Shown in pieces: positions 22,741-38,555 of a stretch of DNA of 38,555 bases. The stretch covers positions 1-38,555 of IMG/VR virus record IMGVR_UViG_3300020122_000242; one strand, 5' to 3'. Source of the stretch: a virus. Both the position numbers and the translations under genes were made by a program. Under the pieces are notes generated by a model. The model searched no databases and was not told the DNA's origin. It saw only the letters and a program-made list of their open reading frames with translations. Position 1 is the stretch's first letter, and every line of letters starts with the position of its first letter.

Positions 22741-22804
22741 GGCTTCCTTACTTTTCTTGACTATGAGGTTTCGTGTCAAGGACTTGAACGAATTATCCAA
22801 TAAC

Positions 22805-25276: not shown

Positions 25277-25638
25277 TGATGTACCCGCAAGCGTTCAGGC
25301 GTTTCGCCCCGCCTGATTTGATCGATCTCCAGAGCGCTAAAATCCTTCGGATTACGCCCAGTTTTCTGATAGGTCACCACCCCGCTCAGCGGGTGAACGC
25401 TTCGAATCTCCATGCTGTGTGCCCCCAGCAACATTTCCTCCTGAACTAAAGGCGGCGTCTCGGGGCGATGACCCGCTCCGGCGCTGAGGATTTGTAAAGC
25501 CAGTGGTCTCTCGTCCTCCGGAAAGGCCGCGCGCCGGATGCAATCGCCGATCTGGATGCACTCCCCCCGTTGCATCCGCATGAATTGCCGTTCCAAAACC
25601 TCACGGGCCCACAGCAGCCGCCGGGTTCGATCACTCAT
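25273..25638 (-). CDS. Hypothetical protein
   Basis: Trimmed to ATG 25638 (MSDRTRRLL..). ATGA overlap at 25635-25638. Confidence 0.55.
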   Translation of the reverse strand: MSDRTRRLLWAREVLERQFMRMQRGECIQIGDCIRRAAFPEDERPLALQILSAGAGHRPETPPLVQEEMLLGAHSMEIRSVHPLSGVVTYQKTGRNPKDFSALEIDQIRRGETPERLRVHQ

Positions 25639-25829
25639 CGCTTCGCCTCCGGAAGGCACTTGCTTTGTAGCGGGATGCTGAAATCCCGATAGGGGTGCGG
25701 ATTGTCATGCGCCATCCGCGTCAGCTCGACTTGCGCCAACAGGCAGGCTCGTTCGGTGGGGAACCAGGCCGCGCCCACGCTACCGCCATGGCCGATGATC
25801 AGCGTCCAGACGAGAATCCAGCCGGTCAT
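25635..25829 (-). CDS. Small protein with an N-terminal hydrophobic segment
   Basis: Only the last 64 codons of ORF 25635..26318 are used (MTGWILVWTLIIGHGG..). ATGA overlap at 25826-25829. Confidence 0.5.
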   Translation of the reverse strand: MTGWILVWTLIIGHGGSVGAAWFPTERACLLAQVELTRMAHDNPHPYRDFSIPLQSKCLPEAKR

Positions 25830-26083
25830 TTGATTTCTCCCTGCCCGCTCTTCCCGAAGTACGCGCGATCCCAGCCGCCGCGCTTGCGGATCCAGGGCAT
25901 TGGGAACGCCCGCCGCGGCTGCAATCCCAATCGGATCCGAACCCGCCCCGGCGTGAAGACGACCCGGGGCACCTTGACGCGCTCCAGACGCCGCAACAGT
26001 TCCTCGTCCGGCACATGCCGCCCGTTCGGAACCCCGGGTATCGGCAGCCGCGAACCCTTGCGCACGAATCCAAGCGTTTCCAT
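25826..26083 (-). CDS. Hypothetical small protein
   Basis: Only the last 85 codons of ORF 25826..26629 are used (METLGFVRKG..). TGATG one-nt overlap at 26083. Confidence 0.45.
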   Translation of the reverse strand: METLGFVRKGSRLPIPGVPNGRHVPDEELLRRLERVKVPRVVFTPGRVRIRLGLQPRRAFPMPWIRKRGGWDRAYFGKSGQGEIK

Positions 26084-26490
26084 CAGACGTCTTCCTCCAA
26101 AACCTGGCCCCAGCCCTTCCATTGTCCGACCATCGCTCCGCACGCCGGCTGCGCGGGAAGCCGCTCGACCTCGCGCCCTGCCTCGCGGAACCGTTCGAGC
26201 GCCTCGGCGATGTCCTCTTGGGTCGGTACGCGATACCCTGCGCGGCGTTTCCCGTGAATCGTGGTCGCCGCGCGAGCCTGCGAGCAGCCGGTGCAGGCCA
26301 TCGCGCCCCAGGCCCCATTCCCCGCGCCGATCTTGACGACCACCGCCTCGGGCGGAACGGTCTGACTGCACCAGGTCACCCGACCGGCCGCCCCGCGATC
26401 CGCCTTGATCTGATGCGCCAGCGACCATTCGCCGCTGATCTGCAGCCGCCAGCGCCATCCCGTCCGGGCCCCACCCTCGCTTCCGCTCAT
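26083..26490 (-). CDS. Hypothetical protein
   Basis: Only the last 135 codons of ORF 26083..26718 are used (MSGSEGGART..). ATGA overlap at 26487-26490. Confidence 0.5.
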   Translation of the reverse strand: MSGSEGGARTGWRWRLQISGEWSLAHQIKADRGAAGRVTWCSQTVPPEAVVVKIGAGNGAWGAMACTGCSQARAATTIHGKRRAGYRVPTQEDIAEALERFREAGREVERLPAQPACGAMVGQWKGWGQVLEEDV

Positions 26491-27674
26491 GGCGAACTCT
26501 CCACGATGACCGGTGCCGTTGCTGTTCCCGGCATTTCGTTCCACTCCCGCCCATCCAGCAGCCGCCCTGCGCGCTTTTTGCCGACGCGGGCCATTTCCAA
26601 TCCCTCGCATTGGCGGTATTCGCGCGCATGGGTCGCCATCGCCAACGGTTCTTCGAAGTCTGCGACGACCCACTCCCCCCACTGCTTGAAGAAGAACGGA
26701 ACCCCCGCCGCGACGCACTGATCTCGAATCCCCCGCGCCCAGTCCGGGTGCATCGGCCGCGCGCCGGGCCCCGACTCCCCGCCGACGATCACCCAGTCGA
26801 GGCCGACCTCGTCGCCTTTGCCGGTGCCATCACATACGCGGCAGCCATTCGCATTCGTGTCAGGCTCATATTGCGAGCCGTCTTTGCACCGGGGGCAGGC
26901 GAGATTCCAGAGACCGTCCAGGCTAAAATCCACGGACCCCAGCAGCGGCTCGGCGCTCACGAACCGCACCGCCGCGGGCGTCGCCAGCAACTCGGGAATC
27001 CGCGCATCCGCCGTCGGCTGATCCTCCGCACTTACCCCCAGCCATACGTTTGGGAGGGGCCATTTCCATTGCTCCAACGTACCTTCGCGAAACCAGAAGG
27101 ACGTTCCATGCTCCGCTTCCGCCATAACCCGGGCTTCGGTCTTCGGATCGGACAGGTACGCCCGCATCCGTTCCGGCCGCTTGGTGAGTATCTGGAAGGT
27201 GATAATCGGTTGCAGCGGCCCGTCCGGGCATCGGCAGTCCTGGTGGTCGTCATCGGGACATCCCGAGTTGTAGCGCACCCACTCAAAACTCCGGAGCGCC
27301 ATCACCGCGAAAATCCGATCGAGCACCGCGTCCGGCACGCCCTCATGAAACAGATCGCTCATCGAGTTCACGAACACCCGCAATCCCTGCTTGCGCCACC
27401 GGAGCGGCGCCTCGATCAGCTTCTCGACGACCGCGATCTTGCCGGTCCAGTGGGGTTCGCCGGGAAAAAGCGCATTCCGGGGAGCGTCCGTCCCGACGCC
27501 GACGGGCTTGATCTGCCCCATCGCTGCCAACCCCTCATAGGCCATCCCCGGCCCGCTGAATCGCGCCGCCACCCGCTCGGCGTAGCAGTGCCGACAGCCC
27601 TCGCTCACGCGCGAGCACCCCCGGATCGGGTTCCATGTGACGTCCGTCCATTCGATGGCGCTGTTCTGGCTCAT
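26487..27674 (-). CDS. DUF5131 / phage Gp37-Gp68 family protein with a Cys-rich insertion
   Basis: The N-terminus IEWTDVTWNPIRGCSRVSEGCRHCYAE matches the family signature IEWT..TWNP..GC..S.GC..CYA. It also has LDWVIVGGESGPGARP and an extra CPRCKDG...CRVCDG zinc-ribbon-like insertion. Confidence 0.75.
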   Translation of the reverse strand: MSQNSAIEWTDVTWNPIRGCSRVSEGCRHCYAERVAARFSGPGMAYEGLAAMGQIKPVGVGTDAPRNALFPGEPHWTGKIAVVEKLIEAPLRWRKQGLRVFVNSMSDLFHEGVPDAVLDRIFAVMALRSFEWVRYNSGCPDDDHQDCRCPDGPLQPIITFQILTKRPERMRAYLSDPKTEARVMAEAEHGTSFWFREGTLEQWKWPLPNVWLGVSAEDQPTADARIPELLATPAAVRFVSAEPLLGSVDFSLDGLWNLACPRCKDGSQYEPDTNANGCRVCDGTGKGDEVGLDWVIVGGESGPGARPMHPDWARGIRDQCVAAGVPFFFKQWGEWVVADFEEPLAMATHAREYRQCEGLEMARVGKKRAGRLLDGREWNEMPGTATAPVIVESSP

Positions 27675-28345
27675 CCGTGTTTATCCGCTGTGATCTGTGG
27701 CCGCTGTTCGCGGTTTGCGCGTGCCGCTCGCAATTGCCTAGGCACTCGTGCCGAAGAGGAGCCGCGCGAACGCTTCCCGCGCCGCTTGCGGGACGACGGA
27801 ATCGCCCAGGGCGCCAAGACGGTCCACCCGAGCGGGAACCCCATGAGCCACTCGACCCACGTCGGGTTCAGTTGCCCAGTCGCCAAGCCCTCCAGATCCA
27901 CGGCGGTGTCGTTCAGATTGGGCGAATACCCCGCTGCCGTGCCGCGCGCCTTGTTCTTGGCGTCTCCCGTTTTGGCGTCGCGCCGAGTCGGCGTCGGATA
28001 AAGCTCCATCGCCCGATAGAGTTCCGTCCGGTTCATCCCCGAGCTGCGCAGCCCCGCACAGTGCCGAGGCGTCGGAAACCTCGCCGCCAGGTTCGAGAGG
28101 GTCGGTCTGCCGCCCGCATAGACCTGTCCCGCCGAGCCCTTCGCCCCGTCTCCCTTCGTCGGCGTGGGCCAGACACCACCACCGCTCCCGGAGATGCGGC
28201 GCTCCCACGTCGTAAGCGCTGAGCACACCCCACCGCGCGTCATACCCCAGCGCGGCAAGGGCCCCGGCCACGGCGAGGCCTCCCCGTCCAGTGAGAGCTG
28301 GGACGTTCTCCAGGAAGACGTAAGCGGGTCGTAGCTCGCCAACGA
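27671..28345 (-). other. Alternative-frame (+1 relative to the C5-MTase frame) protein-like coding signal
   Basis: This is part of ORF 27671..28645. It has three [W/F/Y]PTP units and LNPTWVEWLMGFPLGWT. Its GC3 is higher than the annotated frame over the centre. It ends in an ATGA overlap with the next gene. Confidence 0.4.
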
Positions 28346-28652
28346 GCCGAGCGACCTCCCACCAAAGCCGACTGTGCTTTCCCGCCAGGCCCGCGCCGCG
28401 GCCCGCAAGGCTGATGTCCGTGCACGGGAATCCGGCGCTAACAAGGTCGACCGGGACGCGGATGTGCTGCGCCGACAGAGTGCGCACATCGTCCCAAATC
28501 GGCGCGCGCTCAAGCTCACCCGCCTGCATCCGCGACAGCAGAACACCGCGCCGGTACCGTGCCAGTTCGCAATAGGCGACGACCCTGACCCAGGGCCGGA
28601 GCGCAAGCGCGATTCCTCCGATTCCCGAAAATAAGTCCAACCCATTCAGCAT
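27738..28652 (-). CDS. DNA (cytosine-5)-methyltransferase (frame A); the central target-recognition part is suspect
   Basis: Motifs present: I DLFSGIGG, IV GFPCTDIS, VI ENV, VIII-like GAPHLRERWW, C-terminal EPDVGRVAHGVPARVDRLGALGDSVVPQ (IX/X-like). The central ~100 aa are Arg/Gly-rich and junk-like, with low GC3. See the finding on the overlapping frame. Confidence 0.7.
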   Translation of the reverse strand: MLNGLDLFSGIGGIALALRPWVRVVAYCELARYRRGVLLSRMQAGELERAPIWDDVRTLSAQHIRVPVDLVSAGFPCTDISLAGRGAGLAGKHSRLWWEVARLVGELRPAYVFLENVPALTGRGGLAVAGALAALGYDARWGVLSAYDVGAPHLRERWWCLAHADEGRRGEGLGGTGLCGRQTDPLEPGGEVSDASALCGAAQLGDEPDGTLSGDGALSDADSARRQNGRRQEQGARHGSGVFAQSERHRRGSGGLGDWATEPDVGRVAHGVPARVDRLGALGDSVVPQAAREAFARLLFGTSA

Positions 28653-29923
28653 CCCTCCCCCAGCAATTCGCCCTGCCCCGACGCCTGGTGCGCGGCATGT
28701 TCTTTCCAGTTCCGCCCGAGCTTCCCCGCCTTCAGGCGGTCATGAGCCGTGTGGCCGCCCAGGTCTTTGTCGCCGCCCGCCAGGTCAATCCCCACGAACT
28801 CCCGCCCCTCGCGATACGCAACTAGCCCGACCGTCCCGCTTCCCGCGAACGGGTCGAGTACGACGCAGGGGATGGGCGTCGGGGCCATCACTGCAAAGCC
28901 GGGAGCCATGCATTCGCAGGACGGGCGCCAGCCTGTAGTTTCATCGGCGCGGATAAATCCGGCCTTATGGCCGTCGCGGGCTCTATTCGAGCCCTGATCT
29001 CCGGCCTCGTGCCCATTACCATCGCGACCGTCATAGACGAATCGCTGTCCCGCTTTGACCGTCGGCACCAGATGCTTCTCGACCACCCTGACCCACGGCG
29101 CCCCGCACGCCGGACAGGCGCCCTTTTCGCTCGTCCCGGCCCGAATGCACCGCTCCACCAGCGCCTCGGGAAACGTCGCGAAATGCGCGCCGGGATAGGG
29201 CTGCGTGGCGATCTCCCACACCGTGCGAAGGTTGCGGCCGCCCTCCGGTCCACCCAGATTCGTGCCGTCGTTGCTTGGCGCGCCCGGATAATCGCGATCG
29301 CGCCGATGGCCATGGCCGTTGGTGCGCGGATCCCCGACCGTCGCGGGGGCCTTGTCCTCCCGCACCGCCTCGGCGTCGTAGAAGTACTTCGCGCGCTTGG
29401 TCAGCAGGAACACGTACTCGTGGGACTTGGTGGGCCGGTCGGTGACGCTCTCGGGCATCGGATTCGGCTTCGCCCAGATGCAATCCGCGCGGAGCCACCA
29501 CCCGTCCGCCTGCAGCGCAAACGCCACCCGCCATGGCATGCCGACCAGGTCTTTCGGCTTGAGGCCAGGCGGGGCTTTGCGGGGCTTGTCGGCATGATCG
29601 CCATGCCCCGAGCCCCAATTGGTCTGTTGCTTATCGCCACCGGCGCCGAGGCCGCCTGCCGCATAGCAATCCCCGTAGTTCACCCAACACACCCCATCGT
29701 CCCGCAGGACGCGCCGCACTTCGCGGAAGACTTCGACCATCACGGCGACATGCGCTTCCGGCGTCGCCTCGAGGCCGTACTGGCCGATCTCGCTATAATC
29801 CCGCAGGCCCCAGTAGGGCGGGCTCGTCACGACGCACTGCACGCTCCCGCTCGGGAACGTCCGCAGCACAGCGAGCGCATCGCCCTTCACGATTTGGCCG
29901 AGAGGCAAGGTCGCGCTAATCAC
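28646..29923 (-). CDS. Beta-class N4-cytosine/N6-adenine DNA methyltransferase
   Basis: Motif IV TSPPYW lies upstream of motif I VLDPFAGSGTVG (order IV then I is the beta class). SPPY favours m4C but does not prove it. The start is uncertain: GTG 29923 (GAAGGAGG just upstream, 8-nt overlap with the upstream stop) versus the track start 30088. Confidence 0.75.
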   Translation of the reverse strand: MISATLPLGQIVKGDALAVLRTFPSGSVQCVVTSPPYWGLRDYSEIGQYGLEATPEAHVAVMVEVFREVRRVLRDDGVCWVNYGDCYAAGGLGAGGDKQQTNWGSGHGDHADKPRKAPPGLKPKDLVGMPWRVAFALQADGWWLRADCIWAKPNPMPESVTDRPTKSHEYVFLLTKRAKYFYDAEAVREDKAPATVGDPRTNGHGHRRDRDYPGAPSNDGTNLGGPEGGRNLRTVWEIATQPYPGAHFATFPEALVERCIRAGTSEKGACPACGAPWVRVVEKHLVPTVKAGQRFVYDGRDGNGHEAGDQGSNRARDGHKAGFIRADETTGWRPSCECMAPGFAVMAPTPIPCVVLDPFAGSGTVGLVAYREGREFVGIDLAGGDKDLGGHTAHDRLKAGKLGRNWKEHAAHQASGQGELLGEGC

Positions 29924-30290
29924 TCGCCTCCTTCGCGCTTTCGTCCATGAACCGCCCCGGATAGCCCTGGACGGGCGAATCCCGCAGCCAGTCCCGGGGG
30001 CGACCCATGGATGGTTTCGGGTTCGGAGTTCCGGGTTCGGAGTTAACGGCCTTGTCCCGTTCCCGCTGTTCCTTGCCGCTCTTCGCACGCTTTGGCGCCA
30101 TCGGCAGATCCAAATGCTTCGGCACCTTCAATCCGTTGCGAGCCGCCAACCGCGCCAGGATCGCCCCAATCGGCTCCATGCCGCCCGGCTGTCCCGGCGG
30201 CCGCAGCTCCGGCGCCAGTCCCGGCTGCGCCTCGTACCGCTCGCGCTCGGCGGGCGTCAGGCCGTTGGGGGTGAGGGAGGGGCGGGTCAT
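29916..30290 (-). CDS. Hypothetical protein
   Basis: Trimmed to ATG 30290 (MTRPSLTPNG..). ATGA overlap at 30287-30290. Confidence 0.5.
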   Translation of the reverse strand: MTRPSLTPNGLTPAERERYEAQPGLAPELRPPGQPGGMEPIGAILARLAARNGLKVPKHLDLPMAPKRAKSGKEQRERDKAVNSEPGTPNPKPSMGRPRDWLRDSPVQGYPGRFMDESAKEASD

Positions 30291-30709
30291 GGCGAACCCC
30301 AAAGCGGCGCACTCCCGCGATAAACCGGCTCTGTGCCGAAGCGCTTCATATGCTCCCAGCGTGCGGTATGGCGCCCGATCTCGAAGAGCGGCCAGCGATG
30401 AATCCATTCAGGACAGAAAACCCGCTCAAACCGCTCGGCGAAATATTCGAACGGCTCGAAGACTGTTACTTTGAACCGCCCCCGACCCGGAGAATCATGG
30501 GGGTAGAAAAGCTGACTTGGCTCCCCATCTTCATTGAGTCCCACGCCCCACCGCGCCCACATATGAACGGGTGGCCCGAATTGTTCTGGCCGGTACCCCT
30601 GATCCATTATGGCGAGACGCGCTGCGTCCGCCGCGACGTGACCCCGGACGTAGAGATTGTCGTCCCCTCCATAGAGTTCGATGAACTCGCCATGCGCGTG
30701 GGTACTCAC
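30287..30709 (-). CDS. Hypothetical protein (GTG start)
   Basis: 140 aa. GTGA overlap with the upstream stop at 30706-30709. Confidence 0.5.
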   Translation of the reverse strand: MSTHAHGEFIELYGGDDNLYVRGHVAADAARLAIMDQGYRPEQFGPPVHMWARWGVGLNEDGEPSQLFYPHDSPGRGRFKVTVFEPFEYFAERFERVFCPEWIHRWPLFEIGRHTARWEHMKRFGTEPVYRGSAPLWGSP

Positions 30710-31197
30710 TCACACCCCCGCCCAATCAGCCGCCCGTCCGTCCCGGGCGCGGTGAACTGCGGCCACGGCACCCAGCCCCGTGGACAATGAAATCCCCACT
30801 CCCGCACGTTCGGCCCGCGAATCCACAGCGACCAAGCGGTGCGGTGGCTACCGATCATCGGTCCATTCACACTCCACGGTTGCCATTCCAACTCAATCCG
30901 ATGCGGCGCCGTGGGGCTCCGGAGCACTACCGACCCCAGTCCGCGCCAGATCCGTTCGCCCAGCACATGCTCGAAGTACCCGCCGCTCAGCACGATGGAG
31001 AAGTTCCACCCCACATGATCGTGCATGGCCCGCTCGTCATCGCTTCGGCAGATCTGGTGCAGGTAGATCCCGCCCCACCGGCTCTTGCGCCCGACTGGCC
31101 AGACGTACCAGCGCCGCATGTACGGCGCGGTCTCTTCGCCGATCACAAAGTCCGGCGGCCGGTGGAAGATCCAGGCGAGGCGTGCGAGCAGATTCAT
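30706..31197 (-). CDS. Conserved hypothetical protein (..YLHQICRSDDERAMHDH.. motif)
   Basis: Trimmed to ATG 31197 (MNLLARLAW..). ATGA overlap at 31194-31197. The (D)DxxxHDH(P/V)W-type motif recurs in phage/plasmid proteins of unknown function, as far as I recall. Confidence 0.55.
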   Translation of the reverse strand: MNLLARLAWIFHRPPDFVIGEETAPYMRRWYVWPVGRKSRWGGIYLHQICRSDDERAMHDHVGWNFSIVLSGGYFEHVLGERIWRGLGSVVLRSPTAPHRIELEWQPWSVNGPMIGSHRTAWSLWIRGPNVREWGFHCPRGWVPWPQFTAPGTDGRLIGRGCE

Positions 31198-31445
31198 CCT
31201 CGAGTCCTCCGCCGTTTCGTTTCCCCGATGATCTCGCCCGAGGCAAATGCCTTGGCTGCGAGAATCCGAGTCGTCCGCGCCGGGCCCCAGACCCAGCAGG
31301 TGATCGTCGTGCAATGCGACTGAAACTTGCCGCGGATCTGTTGCATGTCGAAGTCCCCGCCGCACTTCGGGCAGGTCAGGCGCTTGGGCTTGAACAGCTT
31401 CCCGAGCTCGTCGTTGATCTCACGCAGGTCGGAGGCTTGGGTCAT
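31194..31445 (-). CDS. Small zinc-ribbon protein
   Basis: Trimmed to ATG 31445 (MTQASDLREIN..). It has CPKCGG...C..ITC. ATGA overlaps occur at both ends. Confidence 0.5.
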   Translation of the reverse strand: MTQASDLREINDELGKLFKPKRLTCPKCGGDFDMQQIRGKFQSHCTTITCWVWGPARTTRILAAKAFASGEIIGETKRRRTRG

Positions 31446-32449
31446 GGCTTCACCTGCTGCTCGATTTTCCGATTCGCGACACGGCACTCCGCGCAGCGGT
31501 ACCCGCGCACATTGTCCGCGTCCTTGTCCTCGCCGCAGGCTAGGCATCGCGCGAGCTTCGGTTCCGCCTGCCCCAGCCCTTCGATCGGGTGGTGCCGCTT
31601 TAGGTGCGGAAGCGCCCATTTGAACCCGCCGATGCCCTCGCGCACGCAGTATTCGACGATTTCCTGAGGCGAGTACCCGAGCCGCGCGTACTCCATCAGC
31701 GCCAGGTCGAGCAGGCGCAGGCCCTCCGCAGTGACCTTCAGCCGTTTGCTTTTCCGCACGTCCAGATAGGCCTCGGTCGTTTCGGGCTTCACCCCCTGGA
31801 GGGTCGCGCGCGCGCGCGCTTCTGGTAGTTGCCCTTGACCAGCTACTTCCTGAACGACTGAGGAAGGTCCTGTAGTTGGGCCGACGCCGTTTGCTAGGGT
31901 CTCCCCCCGCGCCTTGCTAGGGTCGTTGTCGCCGTTTGCTAGGGTCTCCGAAGCCCTAGCGGATTTTGCTAGGGTCGCGGGCGCCTCCAGCCCCACACTC
32001 CTGGCCCAGGCGCCGAACCGTTTCAGCGTCTTTTGGGGCAGCAGGGGCCACCAATTCTCCATCAACAGCCGGTACGCGTTGCTCTTGCCATCGGTCGGAA
32101 CGATCTCGATCAGTCGCCGCTCGCGCAGACTGGCGACCATCGCGGTCACCGTCCGGGGGGAGCAGCCTTTCACGTCGGGCCATCCGGCGAATTGCGCCAG
32201 CTTCACGTGGGCCAGCTCACAGCGCAGCTCCTCGTCGCGACACTCGTCCGCGATGATTTGCAGCACCTTCCCCTCCGCCGGAGGCAGGGGCAGGTGCAAC
32301 GCCATGGTCTGGGCAAATCCACTCATCCGTTCCGCGTCCTTGCGGGTGCTGCTGCCCTGCTGCCTTCGTCCCTGAACTGCACCGGCGGTGTCCGGGTAGC
32401 CGACGATCTCCCGGCTCTCTCTGCGGGCGGTCACGCCTCTCCGGGTCAT
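31442..32449 (-). CDS. Replication initiator-like protein (winged-helix N-domain, C-terminal zinc ribbon) carrying internal iterons
   Basis: 335 aa (alternative start ATG 32326). The ..AQFAGW....CSPRTVTAMVASLRERRLIEIVP.. segment looks like a wHTH. CLACGE...CAECR is present. Four direct 11-12-nt DNA repeats lie inside the gene, the lambda O-like arrangement. Confidence 0.55.
   Translation of the reverse strand: MTRRGVTARRESREIVGYPDTAGAVQGRRQQGSSTRKDAERMSGFAQTMALHLPLPPAEGKVLQIIADECRDEELRCELAHVKLAQFAGWPDVKGCSPRTVTAMVASLRERRLIEIVPTDGKSNAYRLLMENWWPLLPQKTLKRFGAWARSVGLEAPATLAKSARASETLANGDNDPSKARGETLANGVGPTTGPSSVVQEVAGQGQLPEARARATLQGVKPETTEAYLDVRKSKRLKVTAEGLRLLDLALMEYARLGYSPQEIVEYCVREGIGGFKWALPHLKRHHPIEGLGQAEPKLARCLACGEDKDADNVRGYRCAECRVANRKIEQQVKP
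31890..31976. repeat. Iteron cluster / candidate origin of replication
   Basis: (T)TTGCTAGGGTC occurs at 31890-31901, 31914-31924, 31935-31946 and 31965-31976, with one inverted partial copy CCCTAGC at 31954-31960. Confidence 0.65.
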
Positions 32450-32514
32450 ATGGCCATCTCGACCCGCGCATGGCTCTTCCCAAGTTCATCGGGATAGCAC
32501 CGCCGGCCGTCCAC

Positions 32515-32538
32515 CCCGCGCCTAGTTAGTGGCGCGGG
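32515..32538 (-). terminator. GC-rich hairpin after the 125-aa gene (CCCGCGCC / GGCGCGGG)
   Basis: 8-bp perfect stem and 8-nt loop. No U-tract follows, so its function is uncertain. Confidence 0.3.
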
Positions 32539-32543
32539 ATTCC

Positions 32544-32921
32544 CTAGACCGCGTGCGTCCCTTCGACGCCGCGCTCCATCCGTGCTTTGGTACGGGCATG
32601 CAGAAACGCCTGCGCGCTGATCAGCTTCCCAAGCGTGTCGGCGTTCTCGACGCACGCATACGGCCCCGCCTGAAAGCCCTTCAGCCGGTCGATCAGGATC
32701 TCGATCAGCGCCTCATGCGTGACGCCGTTCACGCCGATCTCGGCGATCGGGCCGTTTTGGAAGCTGATGTGCAGGCTCCGCGGAGGCAGCTTGGCTCCCT
32801 GAGGATTCGGGTAGCTCAGCAAATACGCATGGCAGGCCCCGCCTTGCCCTGGCTCATCCATCACTTCAATCCGAATCTGATCGTTCGCCGGATTGACCTT
32901 GTGCCCCGTTAGCTCTCGCAT
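32544..32921 (-). CDS. Conserved phage protein ending ..RTKARMERGVEGTHAV; possible Acb2/Tad1-family cyclic-nucleotide sponge
   Basis: ORF trimmed to ATG 32921 (AAGGAG 5 nt upstream). FQNGPIAEIGVNGVTHEALIEILIDRLKGFQAGPYACVENA..L..A...L..RT..R..RGVEGT is a pattern I recall from a widespread phage family now labelled Acb2/Tad1 domain. This is unverified memory. Confidence 0.4.
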   Translation of the reverse strand: MRELTGHKVNPANDQIRIEVMDEPGQGGACHAYLLSYPNPQGAKLPPRSLHISFQNGPIAEIGVNGVTHEALIEILIDRLKGFQAGPYACVENADTLGKLISAQAFLHARTKARMERGVEGTHAV

Positions 32922-32947
32922 CGCCGCTCCTTTCTCGTTGACCTGCG

Positions 32948-33397
32948 TTAACCCGCCCTCCGCTGTTCGTACTTCTTCGTGACGTTCGGCCCCTTGCGCC
33001 GCACGCGCCCGCGCGTGGCCGTTTTGTCGAGGTGGCACACGATGCAGGGCACCTGGGCATTCGCCCGCACGCCCGCGCCGCCATCGGCCACTTCGTGGCG
33101 GTGATCGATCTGAAACACGCCATCGAGCGTGGCCTCGCCGAGCCGATAGCGCGCCAGATCTTTCGCCGCCCGGGGATAACGCCGCGCGGCCTCCTGAAAG
33201 CGCACCTGCATCCGCATCCACCACCCGAGCGTCGTGCGCTCCCGGGGCAGCGTGACGCGGAGCCCGACCGTCGCCATGTCCTCGACGAACTGCCGCCAGG
33301 CCTTAGTCTGGCCGCAGTCGACCGCGCAGCAGCGCCCGCAGGAATCGCGATATACCGCGCGCTTGACGGCCTCGGAGAAGTCGGCGGGGCGGGTCAT
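32948..33397 (-). CDS. HNH endonuclease
   Basis: Trimmed to ATG 33397 (ATGA overlap). QIDHRHEVADGG....NAQVPCIVCHLDKT matches DH...GG...N...C..CH..K. Confidence 0.75.
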   Translation of the reverse strand: MTRPADFSEAVKRAVYRDSCGRCCAVDCGQTKAWRQFVEDMATVGLRVTLPRERTTLGWWMRMQVRFQEAARRYPRAAKDLARYRLGEATLDGVFQIDHRHEVADGGAGVRANAQVPCIVCHLDKTATRGRVRRKGPNVTKKYEQRRAG

Positions 33398-33738
33398 GCT
33401 GCTACTCCTTCGGTCTTCCAATTCGGAAATGGCACTTCGGATGCCCGATCCCACCATGGTTTTCGCCAACCTCTGAATCCGGGGATCGTCTCCGGAATCG
33501 TGATCGCGACCGCGCCGCCCTGCCGGCAAATGCAACCCGGTTGAACCCGCGTGACGGGCGCATACCCTCGCAATCGGCCCCAAGCGACGATATACAGCCG
33601 CTCGCCAGGCAGAATCGGCGCAAGCTTGGTGCCCAGATAGAATCCCCATTCCTCGCCAGTGACGGGCTCGCCGACGCAATCGCCTTCATCGAGCCATTCG
33701 GGCCAGAACCATTTCGGCACCGTCACCACGAGATCCAT
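33394..33738 (-). CDS. Hypothetical protein
   Basis: Trimmed to ATG 33738 (MDLVVTVPKWFWPEWLDEGD..). AAAGGGGAGGGG lies immediately upstream. Confidence 0.5.
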   Translation of the reverse strand: MDLVVTVPKWFWPEWLDEGDCVGEPVTGEEWGFYLGTKLAPILPGERLYIVAWGRLRGYAPVTRVQPGCICRQGGAVAITIPETIPGFRGWRKPWWDRASEVPFPNWKTEGVAA

Positions 33739-33898
33739 CCCCTCCCCTTTCGTTCTGGAAGAACCGGGCCGCCCTTCCTTGGGCGTGCACACCTGCACCC
33801 GGCACTGCACTTCGTTGGTATTCGGCGTGCAGCAAAAGAGGCGTTTTTATTCCCAGCCTTTACGCGAAGGCCGGACTCTCAACTGCACGCCGAAATCC

Positions 33899-34126
33899 TT
33901 ACGCCGCCAACTGCGCGGTCGTGTACTCGACCCACATCCCGAGCGCCATCATTTCCACGAAGGCATCGGAGGCGCCCTCCATCGCCGCCTGCTCGGCCTC
34001 CGACCACTTCTGTAGCTCGCCCGCCGCGAAGTGCGTCCACGCTGCCTGTACATCGCGCTCTTTCTTCTCGTCGATCATCGCGAGATTCCGCAGCTTGTGA
34101 ATCACTTTGTCGCGAAACGTCTTCAT
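33899..34126 (-). CDS. Hypothetical small protein
   Basis: Trimmed to ATG 34126 (MKTFRDKVIHKL..). GGAGG lies 7 nt upstream. Confidence 0.5.
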   Translation of the reverse strand: MKTFRDKVIHKLRNLAMIDEKKERDVQAAWTHFAAGELQKWSEAEQAAMEGASDAFVEMMALGMWVEYTTAQLAA

Positions 34127-34203
34127 GCGGATTCCTCCGTTAGTTCTGCTAATCGAATCGCGACCCCGGCCAACTTCACTCGCCAATATGCCGCCGCCGC
34201 CTC

Positions 34204-34398
34204 TTATGCCGTCGGCCAGGATCGGCGCGATTTCTGCCGATGTGCCTGGTTCGGCATTACGCGCCAGCCGAATTCATTTGAGCCCGTGACGCGCCCAAGC
34301 ACCGCCGAACCACCGAGATCGCCGCCGGACGCCCAGACTCGCCAGCAATGAGGATTGAGCCGTTCGGCTTGATAACTGCGCTTTTTTAAGCCCTTCAT
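34204..34398 (-). CDS. Hypothetical small protein (64 aa)
   Basis: ATG 34398 has AGAGGA 7 nt upstream and an ATGA overlap with the preceding small ORF. GC3 is only about 64% by hand count. Confidence 0.4.
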   Translation of the reverse strand: MKGLKKRSYQAERLNPHCWRVWASGGDLGGSAVLGRVTGSNEFGWRVMPNQAHRQKSRRSWPTA

Positions 34399-34568
34399 GC
34401 CGGGATCCTCTGCTGGTCGGGGTTGTGCATCCGTTCGTGCATGGCGCACAGCCACAGGCCATGCTGCCGCTTTCGCGTCCGCGCGCCGCACTGCCGCGTC
34501 GTGACCCGCACCTTCCCGCGCCGGATGATCCACTGACAGCGGTGGGTTCCTTCGCGCATGGGAATCAT
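34395..34568 (-). CDS. Small Cys/His-rich basic protein (57 aa, not in the ORF track)
   Basis: The sequence is MIPMREGTHRCQWIIRRGKVRVTTRQCGARTRKRQHGLWLCAMHERMHNPDQQRIPA. ATGA overlaps occur at both ends (34565-68, 34395-98). GC3 is about 86% by hand count, versus about 55% for the listed overlapping frame. Confidence 0.5.
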   Translation of the reverse strand: MIPMREGTHRCQWIIRRGKVRVTTRQCGARTRKRQHGLWLCAMHERMHNPDQQRIPA

Positions 34569-34747
34569 GGCGCATTCCCGTTCGCCCGCGCCGCCTGAAG
34601 CTGCTTGCGGTAGGTGCGCTCCAGGAGCCGCTTGAGCAGCATGGAAACGCTCTGGCCGCGCCGGTCTGCCTGCGCCCGAATGACGGACGCGAACAGCGGG
34701 TCAACCTTGGTTCCCAGCACGGGGTATTTGCTTTTCTCGATCTCCAT
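34565..34747 (-). CDS. Ribbon-helix-helix (Arc/CopG-like) DNA-binding regulator
   Basis: 60 aa. ..LGTKVDPLFASVIRAQADRRGQSVSMLLKRLLE.. has a beta-strand plus two-helix RHH layout. It is the first gene after a promoter-like element. Confidence 0.6.
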   Translation of the reverse strand: MEIEKSKYPVLGTKVDPLFASVIRAQADRRGQSVSMLLKRLLERTYRKQLQAARANGNAP

Positions 34748-34753
34748 AGAACC

Positions 34754-34782
34754 CTTATAATCGGGGTTAACTACAGAGTCAA
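34754..34782 (-). promoter_or_regulatory. Sigma70-like promoter TTGACT-N17-TATAAG for the RHH gene; near-leaderless transcript
   Basis: Minus strand: TTGACT (34782-34777), a 17-nt spacer, TATAAG (34759-54), then ggttct, then ATG 34747. There is no room for an SD. Confidence 0.5.
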
Positions 34783-34825
34783 GCGGGAATTTGCGGGATC
34801 GGTTACTACGAGGATACCAACTAGC

Positions 34826-34839
34826 GTTTCACGTGAAAC
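34826..34839. promoter_or_regulatory. Perfect 14-bp palindrome GTTTCACGTGAAAC (operator candidate)
   Basis: Read directly. It lies 44 nt upstream of the -35 box and 1 nt after the holin-like gene stop. Confidence 0.45.
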
Positions 34840-34840
34840 A

Positions 34841-35278
34841 TTAGCTGGTCAGCTTCTTCCAGTCGGGGATGACCGGCTGGGCGGGCGCCTCGGGCTTGTT
34901 GCCGCGGGCGTCCTGGGCCTTCTGCTCGATCTTATCATCGGCCCGCCGCTCGCGCAGGGGCACGCTGCCGGTCAGGTCGAGGATCCCGAAGAGCAGACAG
35001 ATCAGCATGGCCATGGTCAACCCGAGCCGCGGGCCGCTGTTGATCAGGCGTCCGACGAGCTGGTAGCCCGGATGCACGGCGTCCACCTTGTCGGCATCGG
35101 GAGCCGCTTCCGCGATCTTCGGGGCCTTGATCAGTGTCCCGAGGGCAATCCCCACTCCCGCGGCAATCAGCCACACGCCGGGCTGCGAACCCCAGTCCTT
35201 GGTGGTCTTCCAGAGCGCCGCAAGCAGCTCGCCTAGGGCGACGACGTCCACAACGCCGGCGGCCAAATAGATTCCCAT
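34841..35278 (-). CDS. Holin-like three-TM protein
   Basis: ORF trimmed to ATG 35278 (AAGGAG 5 nt upstream). TM candidates are IYLAAGVVDVVALGELLAALW, VWLIAAGVGIALGTLI and LGLTMAMLICLLFGILDL. It has a charged C-terminus and lies adjacent to the endolysin. Confidence 0.6.
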   Translation of the reverse strand: MGIYLAAGVVDVVALGELLAALWKTTKDWGSQPGVWLIAAGVGIALGTLIKAPKIAEAAPDADKVDAVHPGYQLVGRLINSGPRLGLTMAMLICLLFGILDLTGSVPLRERRADDKIEQKAQDARGNKPEAPAQPVIPDWKKLTS

Positions 35279-35292
35279 GACGACTCCTTGGG

Positions 35293-35691
35293 CTAAGCCA
35301 CGTCCTGCACATGATGCAGTTCGAAGTGATCCAGATCGTCCAGCACCCCAGGGCCATTCCGAGTGCCGTTCCAGGCGCCGCCCCAGCGGATGGGGATCCC
35401 CAATTCCTTTGCCTTCGGAAGCACAATCTCTTCGGCAAATCGGATGAACCGCTCCTTGTCGTTCCAATCCAGAGGCGAGGGGGCCGCATCTACCGCTTGG
35501 GACGGCCGGAGCAAGTGCTTGCTATGCTGCGTGCGGCTAACGCCGATCGCGACATTATGGGCTTGTTGCTCTTCGGTGCGCTCGCCTTGTACGATCACGA
35601 CGCCGAAATCCTCCGCAATCGCCCGAAACAACCGAACCAATTCGGGCGCGCACGTGTCAAGTCGTGCTTGACAACTGGAAGACATCGACAT
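35293..35691 (-). CDS. Endolysin, peptidase M15 (VanY / L-Ala-D-Glu peptidase-like)
   Basis: HSKHLLRPSQAVD (His..Asp zinc ligands) and WGGAW....DLDHFEL (third His) follow the M15 pattern S.H....A.D ... D..HFE. Confidence 0.75.
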   Translation of the reverse strand: MSMSSSCQARLDTCAPELVRLFRAIAEDFGVVIVQGERTEEQQAHNVAIGVSRTQHSKHLLRPSQAVDAAPSPLDWNDKERFIRFAEEIVLPKAKELGIPIRWGGAWNGTRNGPGVLDDLDHFELHHVQDVA

Positions 35692-35694
35692 GGC

Positions 35695-36006
35695 CTAGTT
35701 CCCCGGGAAGCGTTTCACGACGTTGACCGCCGATTTCTCCGGAATCCCCAGCGCCGCCTCGATCCGCGCCAGGCTCTGCCGCATGGGTAGCAGCTTCGCA
35801 TCCACCCGGGCATCGATCACCCAGATCCAGAGCGCCACGCCGGCGGTGATCGCGCTTAGGCCGAAGGCCGCGCCGCCGATCAGCACGCTCGCCTTCGTCC
35901 ATCCGGAGATTTTACGATCCATGCGCCTCCGAGGGTTCGCGTGTCGCCAATCGAAGCCGCTCGGCGTTCCCGAGCTGGTGTCCGTCTGCGTTGGAACGGG
36001 AAGCAT
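35695..36006 (-). CDS. Single-TM lysis-cassette protein (holin/antiholin or i-spanin-like)
   Basis: 103 aa with TM ASVLIGGAAFGLSAITAGVALWIWVI followed by a helical tail. It lies directly upstream of the endolysin. Confidence 0.5.
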   Translation of the reverse strand: MLPVPTQTDTSSGTPSGFDWRHANPRRRMDRKISGWTKASVLIGGAAFGLSAITAGVALWIWVIDARVDAKLLPMRQSLARIEAALGIPEKSAVNVVKRFPGN

Positions 36007-36013
36007 CGCGCCC

Positions 36014-36808
36014 TTAAAGATCGGTCTTGATCATCGCGTCGACCTGCTTGCCGAAGCCGCGGCGCCGGAGGAACGGATAATCGTTCTCCGCCAGGTATCG
36101 CCGCTCCGCATCCTCGCCGTAGAATTCTTCAACCTGCCCGATGGTCAAGACGTGTCCCGGTCCCTCCATTTCGTCCATGCAGCGTTGCCGATCGGCGTCG
36201 CTGATGTAGGGCCACCGCTCGTCCACGATCTGCCCCTTGAGCACCAGTTCCACCAGCTCATGCTCCAGCAAGTCGGCGATATCCCGCTGGTCCTGCTCCG
36301 CGCTGGGCTTGACGGGGGGATTCACCATCACGGCGCGCTCGACCAGGATCTCCATGTTGGGCGGAACGCCCTTCGGGCCCGGCGTCGTGTCGCCCTGCCA
36401 GCAGATCCCGTTGACTTCCGGATTTTTCTCGACCAGACGCACGTCCAGCGACTTGTACCGGAGCGGAATCTGCGTACCCGGGTGAAAGCCCGCGGGCTTC
36501 GGGTCGAGCGAGTTCCAGAGATTGCTGAGGCTCGCCTGCTCTTTCACGCCGACATCCGCCGTCCAATCATTGGTCGCCCCGCGGAGCTGGGTACGCGAGA
36601 GCCAACGCCGCGTGCCGCCGTTTGCGCGCAGCACCAGCAGGTGCACCGCCGCAATCCCCCGCACCATATCCCCATCGCGGTAGTAGACCCGCTCGCGCAG
36701 CATGAACTGCTTCCCGATCGGACGCCCCACATCCGTGATGCGCGCGGATTTCCATTCCCCGAGCGGGGCCTGGGGCATCTGCGGAACGGGTTGGGCAATC
36801 GCTTCCAT
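36014..36808 (-). CDS. Hypothetical protein
   Basis: 264 aa with an ATG start, tightly abutted by its neighbours. No motif was recognised. Confidence 0.6.
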   Translation of the reverse strand: MEAIAQPVPQMPQAPLGEWKSARITDVGRPIGKQFMLRERVYYRDGDMVRGIAAVHLLVLRANGGTRRWLSRTQLRGATNDWTADVGVKEQASLSNLWNSLDPKPAGFHPGTQIPLRYKSLDVRLVEKNPEVNGICWQGDTTPGPKGVPPNMEILVERAVMVNPPVKPSAEQDQRDIADLLEHELVELVLKGQIVDERWPYISDADRQRCMDEMEGPGHVLTIGQVEEFYGEDAERRYLAENDYPFLRRRGFGKQVDAMIKTDL

Positions 36809-36809
36809 G

Positions 36810-37325
36810 CTATTCGATCCGGATGGCTTGAATCGCGCCCTTGAACGTATCGAGCAGCGCGCCCAGCAGCCTGCCCTTCAGGTAGACCGTCGCGCCGCCG
36901 ACCCCGATTTGCTGGTTCCAAACGAGGAAGCGCGCGCCTCCCGCAGCAATCGCGATATCCGTGCGCTGGTTGACATCCTCAATATGGTCAGTCGCGACGT
37001 TCCCACTGTTCAGGCTGAGCGCGACCGACACGCCGGTAACGAGCGTCAGCAGCCCGACCGAAACCTCCGCCACAATCAGCCAATTCCCTTGCGTGAGCAA
37101 TAGAGAATTGATGTTCCCCCATGTGTTCAACCCGAAGCCCGAGCCGACGGCCGCCGCACCCGTGGCCGTCGCCTTCCACTCGCCGACGCTTCCGGCCGGC
37201 ACCGCCGCACCGCTCGTATCGCCCGTGTAAGGCGGAGCTGGGGTTGCGCCGGTCGCCCCGATGTTTCCCTGAGCGCCCTGTATCCCTTGGCCTCCGATCG
37301 GCCACCGGCTCCATGGCGTGGTCAT
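36810..37325 (-). CDS. Collagen-like repeat protein with a C-terminal globular domain (fibre-like)
   Basis: Trimmed to ATG 37325 (ATGA overlap). It has six G-X-Y triplets (GGQGIQGAQGNIGATGAT), then ..VPAGSVGEW.. and a beta-rich C-domain, as in BclA/C1q-like phage fibres. Confidence 0.6.
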   Translation of the reverse strand: MTTPWSRWPIGGQGIQGAQGNIGATGATPAPPYTGDTSGAAVPAGSVGEWKATATGAAAVGSGFGLNTWGNINSLLLTQGNWLIVAEVSVGLLTLVTGVSVALSLNSGNVATDHIEDVNQRTDIAIAAGGARFLVWNQQIGVGGATVYLKGRLLGALLDTFKGAIQAIRIE

Positions 37326-37708
37326 ACGCTGGCGCTCCCCACGCACCGCGTGCTGGCCTTGTCGCCGACCCCGCCGCTCGTGGGCGTCCAGACCACGCGC
37401 ACATTCCGCACGCCAGGCTTGTCGATGTCGAAGACCGGGTTCTGGTTCGCCGGCGTCGTGGGGAGCGTGATCGCCGGAATCGACATGTCCGTGCCGTCGG
37501 TCGCGACTGGCTTGACCGCATTCGTCCCCTGCACCTTGAACGTCCCGGCCGGGGCGTTCCCGAAGGTCATGGGGATTTCAATGGTCAGCTTGTCGAAGCT
37601 GTTCTCGTTGACATGACAGGGAATCCAGGCACCTGTCCAAGACGCCGCCATGTCCTTTCCGCTGTCGGCGATATAGGGCGAGTCCGCCCCGCCCATCAGG
37701 ATACGCAT
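37322..37708 (-). CDS. Hypothetical beta-rich protein, first gene of the minus-strand array
   Basis: The track start is TTG 37726. ATG 37708 has GGAG 5 nt upstream (MRILMGGADSPY..). Confidence 0.55.
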   Translation of the reverse strand: MRILMGGADSPYIADSGKDMAASWTGAWIPCHVNENSFDKLTIEIPMTFGNAPAGTFKVQGTNAVKPVATDGTDMSIPAITLPTTPANQNPVFDIDKPGVRNVRVVWTPTSGGVGDKASTRCVGSASV

Positions 37709-37734
37709 GTTCGCTCCGCTGGACAAAACCGGGG

Positions 37735-37763
37735 TTGACTTCGGTTAACCTTTGGGGTAGGCT
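37735..37763 (+). promoter_or_regulatory. Candidate promoter TTGACT-N17-TAGGCT for the plus-strand cassette
   Basis: It lies in the 90-108-nt divergent gap. The -35 is perfect except for the last base. The -10 keeps T1, A2 and T6. GGGAG (37806-10) lies 6 nt before ATG 37817. Confidence 0.4.
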
Positions 37764-37816
37764 GGTCTTGCCTGTCGATTTCGGCGGGATGCTCGAAACC
37801 TTCTTGGGAGATCCGT

Positions 37817-38092
37817 ATGTCACGACCTGTGGTGGTTACCACCGAACATCGAGGCGTCTTCTTCGGCTATGCCGACGATACGACCGGTTCCATCATCGAT
37901 CTGAAGCAAGCCCGGAACTGCATCTACTGGAGCCCCGCCGTCAAGGGCTTCATCGGCCTAGCCGCGACCGGCCCGGATGCCAAAAGCCGCGTGGGCCCGG
38001 CAGCCGACATGCAATTGCGTGCCATCACCGCCGTTCTGGAGTGCACCCCCGAAGCCGTGAAGGCTTGGGAAGGCGAACCATGGGGCAAATAA
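37817..38092 (+). CDS. Conserved small hypothetical protein (91 aa)
   Basis: It has a good SD. VVVTTEHRGVFFGY....G.IIDLKQARNCIYWS..VKGFIGLAATGP resembles a recurrent phage family of unknown function, as far as I recall. Confidence 0.65.
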   Translation: MSRPVVVTTEHRGVFFGYADDTTGSIIDLKQARNCIYWSPAVKGFIGLAATGPDAKSRVGPAADMQLRAITAVLECTPEAVKAWEGEPWGK

Positions 38093-38555
38093 TAACTGAC
38101 AATTCTGGCTATGGCTATGGCTATGGCTCTGGCTCTGGCTCTGGCTATGGCTATGGCTATAGCTCTGGCTATGGCTCTGGCTCTGGCTCTGGCTATGGCT
38201 CTGGCGATGGCTATGGCTCTGGCTCTGGCTCTGGCTATGGCTATGGCTCTGGCTCTGGCGATGGCTATGGCTATGGCTCTGGCTATGGCTCTGGCTCTGG
38301 CTCTGGCTCTGGCTATGGCTCTGGCTCTGGCTCTGGCGATGGCTATGGCTATGGCTATGGCTCTGGCTCTGGCGATGGCTCTGGCTCTGGCTATGGCTAT
38401 GGCTATAGCTCTGGCTATGGCTCTGGCTATGGCTCTGGCTCTGGCTATGGCTATGGCTCTGGCGATGGCTATGGCTCTGGCTCTGGCGATGGCTATGGCT
38501 ATGGCTATGGCGATGGCTATGGCTCTGGCGATGGCTCTGGCTATGGCTATGGCTC
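38080..38555 (+). CDS. (Gly-Tyr/Ser/Asp)n alternating-repeat protein, 5' part (166 aa in total, ending at 152 after the circular junction)
   Basis: ATG 38080 has GGGAAGG 6-7 nt upstream and a 13-nt overlap with the upstream gene. It reads MGQIITDNS then GYGYGYGSGSGS.... All three plus frames are open, so the frame choice rests on start, SD and stop placement. Confidence 0.5.
   Translation, partial: MGQIITDNSGYGYGYGSGSGSGYGYGYSSGYGSGSGSGYGSGDGYGSGSGSGYGYGSGSGDGYGYGSGYGSGSGSGSGYGSGSGSGDGYGYGYGSGSGDGSGSGYGYGYSSGYGSGYGSGSGYGYGSGDGYGSGSGDGYGYGYGDGYGSGDGSGYGYG
38104..38555. repeat. Hexanucleotide GGC-T[A/C]T / GGC-GAT array (main part)
   Basis: About 75 consecutive 6-nt units. The only deviations are two ggc-to-agc changes (38161, 38407). 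Confidence 0.95.
38429..38555. repeat. 127-nt terminal overlap identical to nt 1-127 (circular assembly signature)
   Basis: Compared base by base: all 127 positions are identical, and the Y/S/D order is aperiodic, so this is not a trivial repeat match. Confidence 0.9.

Follow-up and report, generated by a model that had tools for sequence, protein, structure and literature searches.

The stretch of DNA analysed here, referred to as the window, is IMG/VR virus record IMGVR_UViG_3300020122_000242 at its full length of 38,555 nt, and its only plus-strand genes are three contiguous open reading frames (ORFs) designated g1, g2 and g3. The first two, encoding a DUF6948 protein and a protein composed almost entirely of Gly-X dipeptides, are a widespread, mobile two-gene phage module, present in hundreds of phages, and not one-off moron cargo. 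The third is unrelated to g1-g2 and is predicted to encode an exported orphan lipoprotein in which the metzincin zinc site is complete; it probably came in with the receptor-binding, distal half of the tail fibre. The full reading, that the island joins two unrelated units, the g1-g2 module and g3, is one that we regard as about evenly balanced between right and wrong. For g1-g2, the pairing, the coupling, selection on the array at the level of amino acids and the fast unit-wise variation in array length and type are established by the comparisons described below. No paper was found in a literature search on DUF6948, DUF7666, Gly-Tyr repeats or 'fibroin heavy chain-like' proteins in phages and the pair, for which neither a name nor a function was found, appears to be undescribed.

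Pairing and coupling of g1 and g2

Related loci, cited below by L numbers, were collected from both sides of the pair. Eighty IMG/VR loci were fetched through g1, and g1 was located by motif in 70 of them. A G-[Y/S/D] repeat ORF directly follows g1 in 65 of these 70, and of the five loci without an adjacent array, three are on contigs that end within 100 nt and two have an array slightly further away. The pairing is also present in nearly all of 37 loci from bacterial genomes or metagenome-assembled genomes (MAGs), distributed over Alpha-, Beta- and Gammaproteobacteria, Acidobacteriota, Planctomycetota, Myxococcota, Gemmatimonadota, Chloroflexota and others. In the reverse direction, IMG/VR was searched with the DNA pattern (GGCKMC)x8 alone, which returned 80 loci, 60 of them with at least 400 nt upstream. 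A match to the DUF6948 hidden Markov model ends 2-240 nt before the array in 42 of these 60 and, after profile iteration, a DUF6948-superfamily gene is found just upstream of the array in 55 of about 62 loci. The functional link is between g1 and g2, with co-occurrence near-exceptionless in both directions, and no neighbouring gene is conserved apart from the pair itself, which in most genomes is co-directional among early, recombination or methylase genes. It is one of few phage gene pairs kept across alphaproteobacterial, gammaproteobacterial, acidobacteriotal, planctomycetotal, myxococcotal and chloroflexotal hosts.

The pair is also present in cultured phages, in which it can be tested experimentally. 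Pectobacterium phage Ymer and its relatives have the pair between tail-fibre and tail genes in inverted orientation, an arrangement similar to that of the window, in Rhodobacter phage RcapNL it is downstream of the repressor, and it is present in Ralstonia phage NK-7, with the repeat protein annotated as a 'fibroin heavy chain-like protein', and in the Rheinheimera Barba phages. The repeat protein of the pair in an uncultured myovirus is annotated as 'lamprin'.

The initial annotation of this DNA had placed all three genes in a single accessory cassette, whose secreted metzincin and Gly/Tyr polymer could act jointly, as enzyme and substrate or in surface remodelling, or be unrelated cargo. The three genes are adjacent and co-oriented on the sole plus-strand island, they probably share a promoter-like site, and no stop codon interrupts the g3 frame back through the array, all as expected for one cassette. 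However, no g3 homologue was found beside g1-g2 in the ~200 related loci examined, and a g3 relative (L083) is on a 1.2-kb contig that has no array. Furthermore, g2 has no signal peptide whereas g3 is predicted to be exported, which would put the two proteins in different compartments, and g3 differs from g1 in GC content (0.505 versus 0.616), has its own ribosome-binding site and is separated from g2 by a hairpin. The single cassette did not survive this comparison and, with g3 never accompanying the pair elsewhere, neither did joint action of polymer and protease; we consider a common function for the three genes very improbable. A frameshift fusion of g2 to g3 was also considered and rejected; the frame is open, yet g3 comes with a separate ribosome-binding site and a signal peptide.

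In the window, translation of g2 begins within g1. The codons for the invariant Pro-Trp of g1 form the sequence CCATGG (38078-38083, plus strand) that includes the start codon of g2, with the result that the two genes overlap by 13 nt with g2 in the -1 frame, and an AAGG Shine-Dalgarno-like sequence is positioned 6 nt upstream of the g2 start. The same -1 register of g2 to g1 is present in 65 of 69 loci, with the start an NTG inside CCN-TGG, namely CC[A/G/T]TGG. Where the sequence is CCCTGG, the loci examined (L076, L080/L082) have the start of the repeat gene at another site, and L001 retains only a short array and no canonical start. Relative to the other prolines encoded by the same genes, the Pro codon before Trp is 4.5-fold depleted in CCC (p ~1e-4) and 2.7-fold enriched in CCA (4e-4), p values that are inflated by the relatedness of the loci. 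In the Barba phages, NK-7 and RcapNL, g2 begins just after the g1 stop codon with its own ATG. As a start codon is kept within the Pro-Trp codons and CCC is avoided, the arrangement points to termination-reinitiation coupling rather than frameshifting, and g1 and g2 are most likely made together by translational coupling through this embedded start.

Programmed -1 ribosomal frameshifting, as in the tail-chaperone G/GT proteins, would instead fuse g1 to g2. The -1 overlap at the end of g1 has the geometry that this would require, and there is an in-frame fusion in L136 (L136:4911-5620, IMGVR_UViG_3300002039_000015), where a 236-aa ORF combines a DUF6948-like domain with a G-X array. This ORF is a candidate natural fusion, although a sequencing frameshift is possible. 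Retention of ATG or GTG at the Pro-Trp codons, avoidance of CCC, the examined loci with CCCTGG, in which the repeat gene has a separate start or is reduced to a few units, and the g2 genes that start past the g1 stop all argue against frameshifting, and a slippery heptamer (X XXY YYZ) is absent from the overlap in the window. We therefore consider frameshifting highly unlikely.

The Gly-X array

The 5' part of g2, encoding MGQIITDNS followed by G-[Y/S/D] repeats, is at 38080-38555 on the plus strand and runs off the end of the window, and the 3' part is at 1-152, with a TAG stop codon at 150-152. Nucleotides 1-127 of the window are identical to 38429-38555, an exact 127-nt terminal overlap located within an array of hexanucleotides with a period of 6 (38106-38554 and 1-151 in the Tandem Repeats Finder (TRF) output). 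With the overlap removed, the assembly closes as a circle and the unit genome is 38,428 bp; we take the overlap to be an assembler k-mer overlap. On this basis, g2 is 38080..38555 plus 128..152, a total of 501 nt that encodes at least 166 aa. The location originally given for g2, 38080..152, is correct only in this form, as a literal end-to-start join shifts the frame. Because the terminal overlap sits in the repeat, the number of units in g2 is a minimum and the real array may be longer. Such arrays routinely break assemblies, as 16 of the 70 related contigs end within 500 nt after g1, in or just before the array, which would account for a recurrent cause of broken phage assemblies.

After MGQIITDNS, the protein has ~78 Gly-X dipeptides (G78 S40 Y33 D9), and it is acidic (isoelectric point (pI) ~4, net charge about -9) with no basic residues. 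The array in the window uses only the codons GGC, TAT, TCT and GAT, and codons are near-monomorphic within each array in general, with Gly encoded by GGC or GGG and X by TAC/TCC/GAC or by TAT/TCT/GAT. Across phages, the X residues are nevertheless consistently Y (1028), S (749) and D (595), with N (35) and A (19) rare, and Ala, which requires two changes from Tyr, is about 10-fold below the frequency calculated from these counts on the assumption of independence. The amino acids stay while the codon sets differ, which argues that the array is selected as protein, and in many homologues the reading frame of the array continues into conserved domains.

Could the array be a non-coding minisatellite, with a role at the level of DNA or RNA, or an artefact of assembly? 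The window ends overlap inside the array, related contigs break there, and the codons are monomorphic with variation confined to two positions of the hexamer, all of which might be expected in either case. However, the G-[Y/S/D] frame is kept with different codon sets, opening at a start codon and ending at a stop codon or a conserved domain, arrays are present in long-read chromosomes and in finished genomes of cultured phages, and length changes are always multiples of 6 nt. A non-coding or artefactual array is, in our view, scarcely credible.

The repeat is the only constant part of g2 proteins. In 41 loci, about half of the closest relatives, the array is followed by a conserved C-terminal domain of ~110 aa (RWWIVAL...REIIGECL), and the N- or C-terminal domains of other relatives are different, among them a borderline match to DUF7666. 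A second architecture, observed in L123, L127, L144, L146, L149, L158, L161, L166, L171, L176 and others, has a short N-terminus (…KAFLSVSS), the array and a conserved C-terminal domain of ~170 aa (IKSFNGEPVYRIDG…DWHHRLTGSC…) that is distinct from the RWWIVAL domain. These additional domains allow an interpretation in which the array is a mere flexible linker, the activity resides in the terminal domains of the relatives (RWWIVAL...REIIGECL, the 'GAC' N-domain or the DUF7666-like domain) and the g2 of the window, having no end domain and no N-terminal motif, is a decaying remnant. Against this, minimal forms without such domains, like that of the window, are common and intact in cultured phages of four unrelated hosts, and the composition of the array already suggests purifying selection in these forms. 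The ORF in the window is, moreover, uninterrupted for at least 166 codons and retains the conserved start in the Pro-Trp codons. A linker-only role for an array that is the one constant feature of the protein is distinctly unlikely.

Comparison of near-identical loci has revealed how the array changes. A long-read MAG of Ca. Marinacidobacterales (L101-L109, contigs CBDFHB010000001/2) has at least eight near-identical copies of an element that carries the pair. Six of these have upstream flanks that are 100% identical and arrays of 54, 90 or 102 nt, with one D-to-Y switch. The element may be a transposable phage or be of some other multi-copy kind. Six cultured Rheinheimera Barba isolates have identical g1 homologues and three g2 alleles, the result of one GY unit gained at two different positions plus a Y/N switch. 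All changes in array length are multiples of 6 nt, and the array gains, loses and switches units quickly while the flanking DNA stays identical. A diversity-generating retroelement was considered as the source of this variation and rejected, as the substitutions are confined to T-to-G and A-to-C and a reverse transcriptase was not observed.

The predicted g1 barrel and a possible g1-g2 assembly

The product of g1 (37817-38092, plus strand) is a 91-aa, 10-kDa, net-neutral protein (pI 6.6) and its gene has a GC content close to the genome average of 0.635. It is a full-length member of DUF6948 (Pfam PF22253), scoring 81.3 bits against a cut-off of 27, with residues 3-84 aligned to profile positions 2-85 of 85. 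We detected 473 homologues with 60-86% identity, with many residues invariant including the C-terminal Pro-Trp. The family is phage-associated and has no assigned function, and neither its pairing with a Gly-X gene nor the embedded start was found described in the literature searched. In tblastn searches, neither g1 nor g3 had matches in GenBank phages, and it took divergent members of the subfamily as queries to recover the g1 homologues of cultured phages. PHROG profiles gave no match for g1, g2 or g3, NCBIfam gave nothing meaningful, and PADLOC profiles gave no match for g1, g3 or the C-terminal domain of one g2 homologue.

The AlphaFold model of g1, with a predicted local distance difference test (pLDDT) value of 94, is made up of five strands and two helices, one following strand 3 and the other strand 5; an N-terminal helix is absent. 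When this model was compared by Foldseek to the PDB, almost all of the top matches listed were Sm/LSm proteins, with E values of 6e-3 to 5e-2 and TM scores of 0.5-0.65; the best match, 3by7, is a marine-metagenome protein described as 'Sm-like'. In BFVD, only uncharacterised DUF6948 phage proteins were matched. No LSM or Hfq family was present among the Pfam hits at E <= 1, and the g1 sequence has no match to a PDB chain at E <= 10. As there is no sequence match to Sm, Hfq or a PDB chain, the predicted g1 structure is termed here an Sm/SH3-like small beta-barrel and g1 is not called a member of the Sm family.

The combination of a small barrel and a low-complexity tail rich in Gly recurs in Sm, LSm and Hfq proteins, as exemplified by the Arg-Gly tails of SmD1/D3/B, by LSm4 and by the GGFGGQ tail of Acinetobacter Hfq. 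g1-g2 resembles these in that a predicted small barrel is tied to a low-complexity partner of the Gly-dipeptide type, in the L136 ORF even as a fusion. It differs in that g2 is usually a separate polypeptide and is acidic and aromatic (Y/S/D) and not basic (R), and in that g1, as modelled, has additional helices. The strict Gly alternation and richness in G, Y and S of g2 are also reminiscent of the [G/S]Y[G/S] domains of FUS-type proteins, in which Tyr is the classic 'sticker' of prion-like domains, and of the (GX)n of silk fibroin. Sequences of these kinds form fibrils or condensates. Designed alternating Gly-Tyr peptides of the GYGYGYG type self-assemble into fibrils (PMC8163036). There is no homology with any of these, and g2 differs in being a free-standing, presumably cytoplasmic phage protein with regular Asp and, in most arrays, no Gln, Asn or Ala.

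From these similarities, we infer that the g1 barrel, probably oligomeric, would work with g2, which would serve in trans as its low-complexity tail. g2 is expected to be disordered and could behave as a multivalent polymer, with Tyr as stickers, Gly and Ser as spacers and Asp providing solubility. Within the infected cytoplasm it might self-associate, as a condensate or as a silk- or amyloid-like assembly organised by g1, to scaffold or sequester a conserved target linked to nucleic acids, with slippage of the repeat tuning its valency. This specific mechanism, in which g1 organises the self-association and slippage sets the valency, is a tentative proposal that we regard as possible but short of probable. 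If g2 does form assemblies, the pair would provide bacterial virology with a tractable natural 'sticker-spacer' system.

Alternatively, the pair could function in host takeover or as an anti-defence decoy, with g2 a mimic or sponge for a kinase, nucleotidyl-transferase, protease or nucleic-acid-binding defence protein and g1 its chaperone or targeting subunit. Its location among early, recombination, methylase and repressor-proximal genes, or as an inverted moron-like unit, would suit such a role, as would the net negative charge of g2 and an array that evolves fast beside an invariant partner, as in an arms race. Asp residues, however, are only 5% of g2 in the window and typically ~12%, far below known DNA mimics, and there were no functional matches to PADLOC or PHROG profiles, g2 not having been scanned against PADLOC. 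The range of hosts over many phyla argues for a universal target rather than for a specific defence system. A decoy is unlikely on this evidence.

g3 and the setting of the island

g3 (230-631, plus strand) encodes 133 aa and is preceded by a GGAGGA ribosome-binding site (219-224) positioned 5 nt before the ATG. By inspection, the protein has a lipoprotein signal peptide (nt 230-280; MHK-LICTLVLVGMV-GG-C17) with a lipobox that ends in VGGC at Cys17. Its match to Pfam Peptidase_M10 (27 bits, cut-off 24) is limited to profile positions 111-156 of 159, and the extended zinc motif HExxHxxGxxH is present as HEIGHWLGLAH (residues 90-100, nt 497-529), followed by a Met-turn, SIMYP (Met107, nt 548-550), that aligns to the 'VMYP' of matrix metalloproteinases (MMPs). 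The identification of g3 as a metzincin lipoprotein in the initial annotation is consistent with these features. Alignment with the MMP catalytic domain extends from the active-site helix through the Met-turn to the C-terminal helix. The residue after the third His is His and not the Ser of matrixins. The nearest known proteases are the matrixins (M10), minimal metzincins such as snapalysin, and the phage-derived Mtz of Listeria. g3 differs from these in that its predicted mature form is only ~117 aa, smaller than snapalysin, and lipidated, and in being an orphan with no adjacent inhibitor-like partner. Among 1.8 billion representative proteins there is one clear homologue (P0122, 39% identity) and one weaker lipoprotein match (P0124, with the lipobox LAACGG), both of which retain the Met-turn, and in a word-indexed set of 5.8 billion proteins there was no match.

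The GC content of g3 (GC3, at third codon positions, 0.54) is that of a low-GC island (230-1800, GC 0.47-0.57 except for one 300-nt stretch at about 900-1200 that reaches 0.63) that includes g3 and the C-terminal ~390 codons of the adjacent tail-fibre gene. This gene (635-2590, minus strand), assigned by PHROG tail-fibre families and Pfam Gly_rich_2, is convergent with g3, and its N-terminal ~260 codons have a normal GC content. The switch within the gene is a classic mosaic boundary in a receptor-binding protein, and the shared composition suggests joint acquisition of g3 and the part of the fibre gene that encodes the receptor-binding region. The favoured interpretation is that g3 is a superinfection-excluding protease of the envelope. 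Anchored there, it would cleave a protein of the envelope, with the receptor of the phage or a protein beside it as the most likely substrate, thereby blocking superinfection and protecting released progeny. This is the logic of the llp gene of phage T5, which lies beside the gene for the receptor-binding protein, with proteolysis substituted. As described in two preprints (bioRxiv 10.1101/2022.06.28.497910; 10.64898/2026.03.26.714494), Llp is an outer-membrane lipoprotein that blocks the receptor FhuA. Compared with Llp and Cor-type exclusion lipoproteins, g3 is similar in being a small lipoprotein gene that abuts a tail-fibre gene in opposite orientation, within a common composition island, and differs in having no sequence similarity and a complete metzincin site, and so would act catalytically rather than by plugging the receptor.

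Nearly as likely as exclusion is that g3 assists lysis, remodelling the envelope such that the wall or outer membrane is sensitised to the endolysin and release is aided. Outer-membrane lipoproteins such as o-spanins take part in lysis, and the endolysin gene of the window (35293-35691, minus strand) is ~2 kb away across the island. A secreted, phage-derived metzincin, of the Mtz/Tim pair, acts on the Listeria envelope and raises sensitivity to phage-mediated lysis (PMC8235301); its action on the envelope is a precedent for the exclusion reading as well. On the other hand, g3 is on the strand opposite the endolysin gene and not adjacent to it, no TIMP-like or i-spanin-like gene adjoins it, and the low-GC island common to g3 and the distal tail fibre points to receptor specificity. 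g3 matters less than the pair; it would be a very small metzincin, predicted to be lipid-anchored, that position and composition tie to receptor specificity.

Several observations weigh against the reading of the island as a g1-organised assembly module joined to an inserted exclusion protease. The Foldseek scores of g1 are moderate, it has no Sm motif and lacks the N-terminal helix, and its neutral charge is atypical of a nucleic-acid binder. The g2 of the window does not have the N-terminal 'LRGxxPxW' motif and C-terminal domain present in about half of its closest relatives and so could be a reduced form, and the codon monomorphism of the array leaves room for a constraint at the level of DNA or RNA. 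Only the C-terminal third of g3 aligns to matrixins, the N-terminal two-thirds being without a match, and its AlphaFold model, from a 3-sequence alignment, has a pLDDT of 38. With respect to the insertion of g3, a search of the 5.8 billion proteins for close relatives of the phage yielded only a 2.4-kb contig with 64% identity. The most far-reaching version, in which a two-component condensate or silk-like matrix of g1 and g2 is shared across phyla, as the bacterial-virus counterpart of the granule scaffolds formed by Sm/LSm proteins with low-complexity tails, and g3 is the first exclusion lipoprotein to work by receptor proteolysis, is unlikely to hold in all its parts.

The island is located between a 108-nt divergent gap (37709-37816) and the stop codon of the tail-fibre gene. 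Its architecture is as the initial annotation had described; g1, g2 (from the ATG at 38080) and g3 are real genes, all other genes are on the minus strand, and 3 nt separate the g3 stop codon (629-631) from that of the tail fibre (635-637). No further plus-strand genes were found in the window, the remaining plus-strand ORFs being short antisense shadows in long minus-strand ORFs with high GC3. An 866-codon ORF (2833-5433, plus strand), antisense to two long minus-strand genes, was rejected as a gene and is a shadow ORF typical for high-GC DNA, its GC3 falling under the filter of 0.72 as compared with 0.76-0.85 for the minus-strand genes. The promoter candidate TTGACT-N17-TAGGCT (37735-37763, plus strand) is upstream of g1, within the gap and in the appropriate orientation, and is the sole TTGAC-N17-19-TANNNT match on both strands of the window, where 0.46 would be expected; however, it is below the threshold of a sigma-70 scan because it matches the -10 hexamer at only 3 of 6 positions. 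There is no significant RNA structure in the gap (z = -0.04), which, like the g2-g3 spacer, folds no better than shuffled sequences, and an Rfam scan gave no match in the gap and only three tRNAs elsewhere in the window. In the spacer, a GC-rich hairpin followed by TTCTTTC (173-198, plus strand; z = -1.34) is a weak terminator candidate, and a short hairpin within the 3' end of g3 (600-614), terminator-like on both strands, is also weak and again folds no better than shuffles.

At the gap, the first minus-strand gene encodes a tube-like or tail-fibre-like protein (37322-37726), followed by a tail-fibre-like protein gene (36810-37346) and that of the endolysin. Since the genes that start there are tail-fibre-like and endolysin genes, the island interrupts a late tail/lysis cluster, and the gap was ruled out as an early/late boundary. 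Morons are independently transcribed accessory genes inserted between late genes, as described in the lambda and HK97 literature, and the moron layout initially proposed holds in part. There is a separate, opposite-strand, accessory-type island beside the tail-fibre gene, with a promoter-like site and weak hairpins, and an inverted accessory layout recurs in phage Ymer. g3 has the marks of a moron, given its atypical GC content, its own GGAGGA site and essentially no relatives. g1-g2, in contrast, is a deeply conserved pair, in most phages co-directional in early regions, and the GC content of g1 is not atypical. A 10-nt direct repeat, GTCGATTTCG, flanks the island (37774-37783 and 647-656) and is the sole candidate for an insertion scar, but with a chance expectation of ~0.12 it is by itself no evidence and was rejected as such.

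Onward along the minus strand are genes for a replication O-like protein, two DNA methylases, DUF5131, the large terminase subunit and three tRNAs, and then the portal, coat, head-closure, ejection and tail-fibre proteins. The portal protein is P22-like, with at most 30% identity to the portal of any cultured phage, and single-protein scans of IMG/VR with neighbouring proteins of 728 aa and 264 aa found no match to a close relative of the phage. The tRNA genes (19393-19614, minus strand) are Gly(TCC), Gly(GCC) and Thr(CGT), and the listed ORF that overlaps them (19045-19662) is probably not a gene. The GCC anticodon of the second tRNAGly reads GGC, the only Gly codon in g2 (78 of 78). The two DNA methyltransferase genes and the DUF5131 gene are in a row at 26487-30088 (minus strand), and DUF5131 and Dam-type methylase genes are also near the g1-g2 pair in L001. 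In the methylase region, TRF identified a 14-nt tandem repeat, GTTCCGGGTTCGGA, present in 2.2 copies at 30014-30044.

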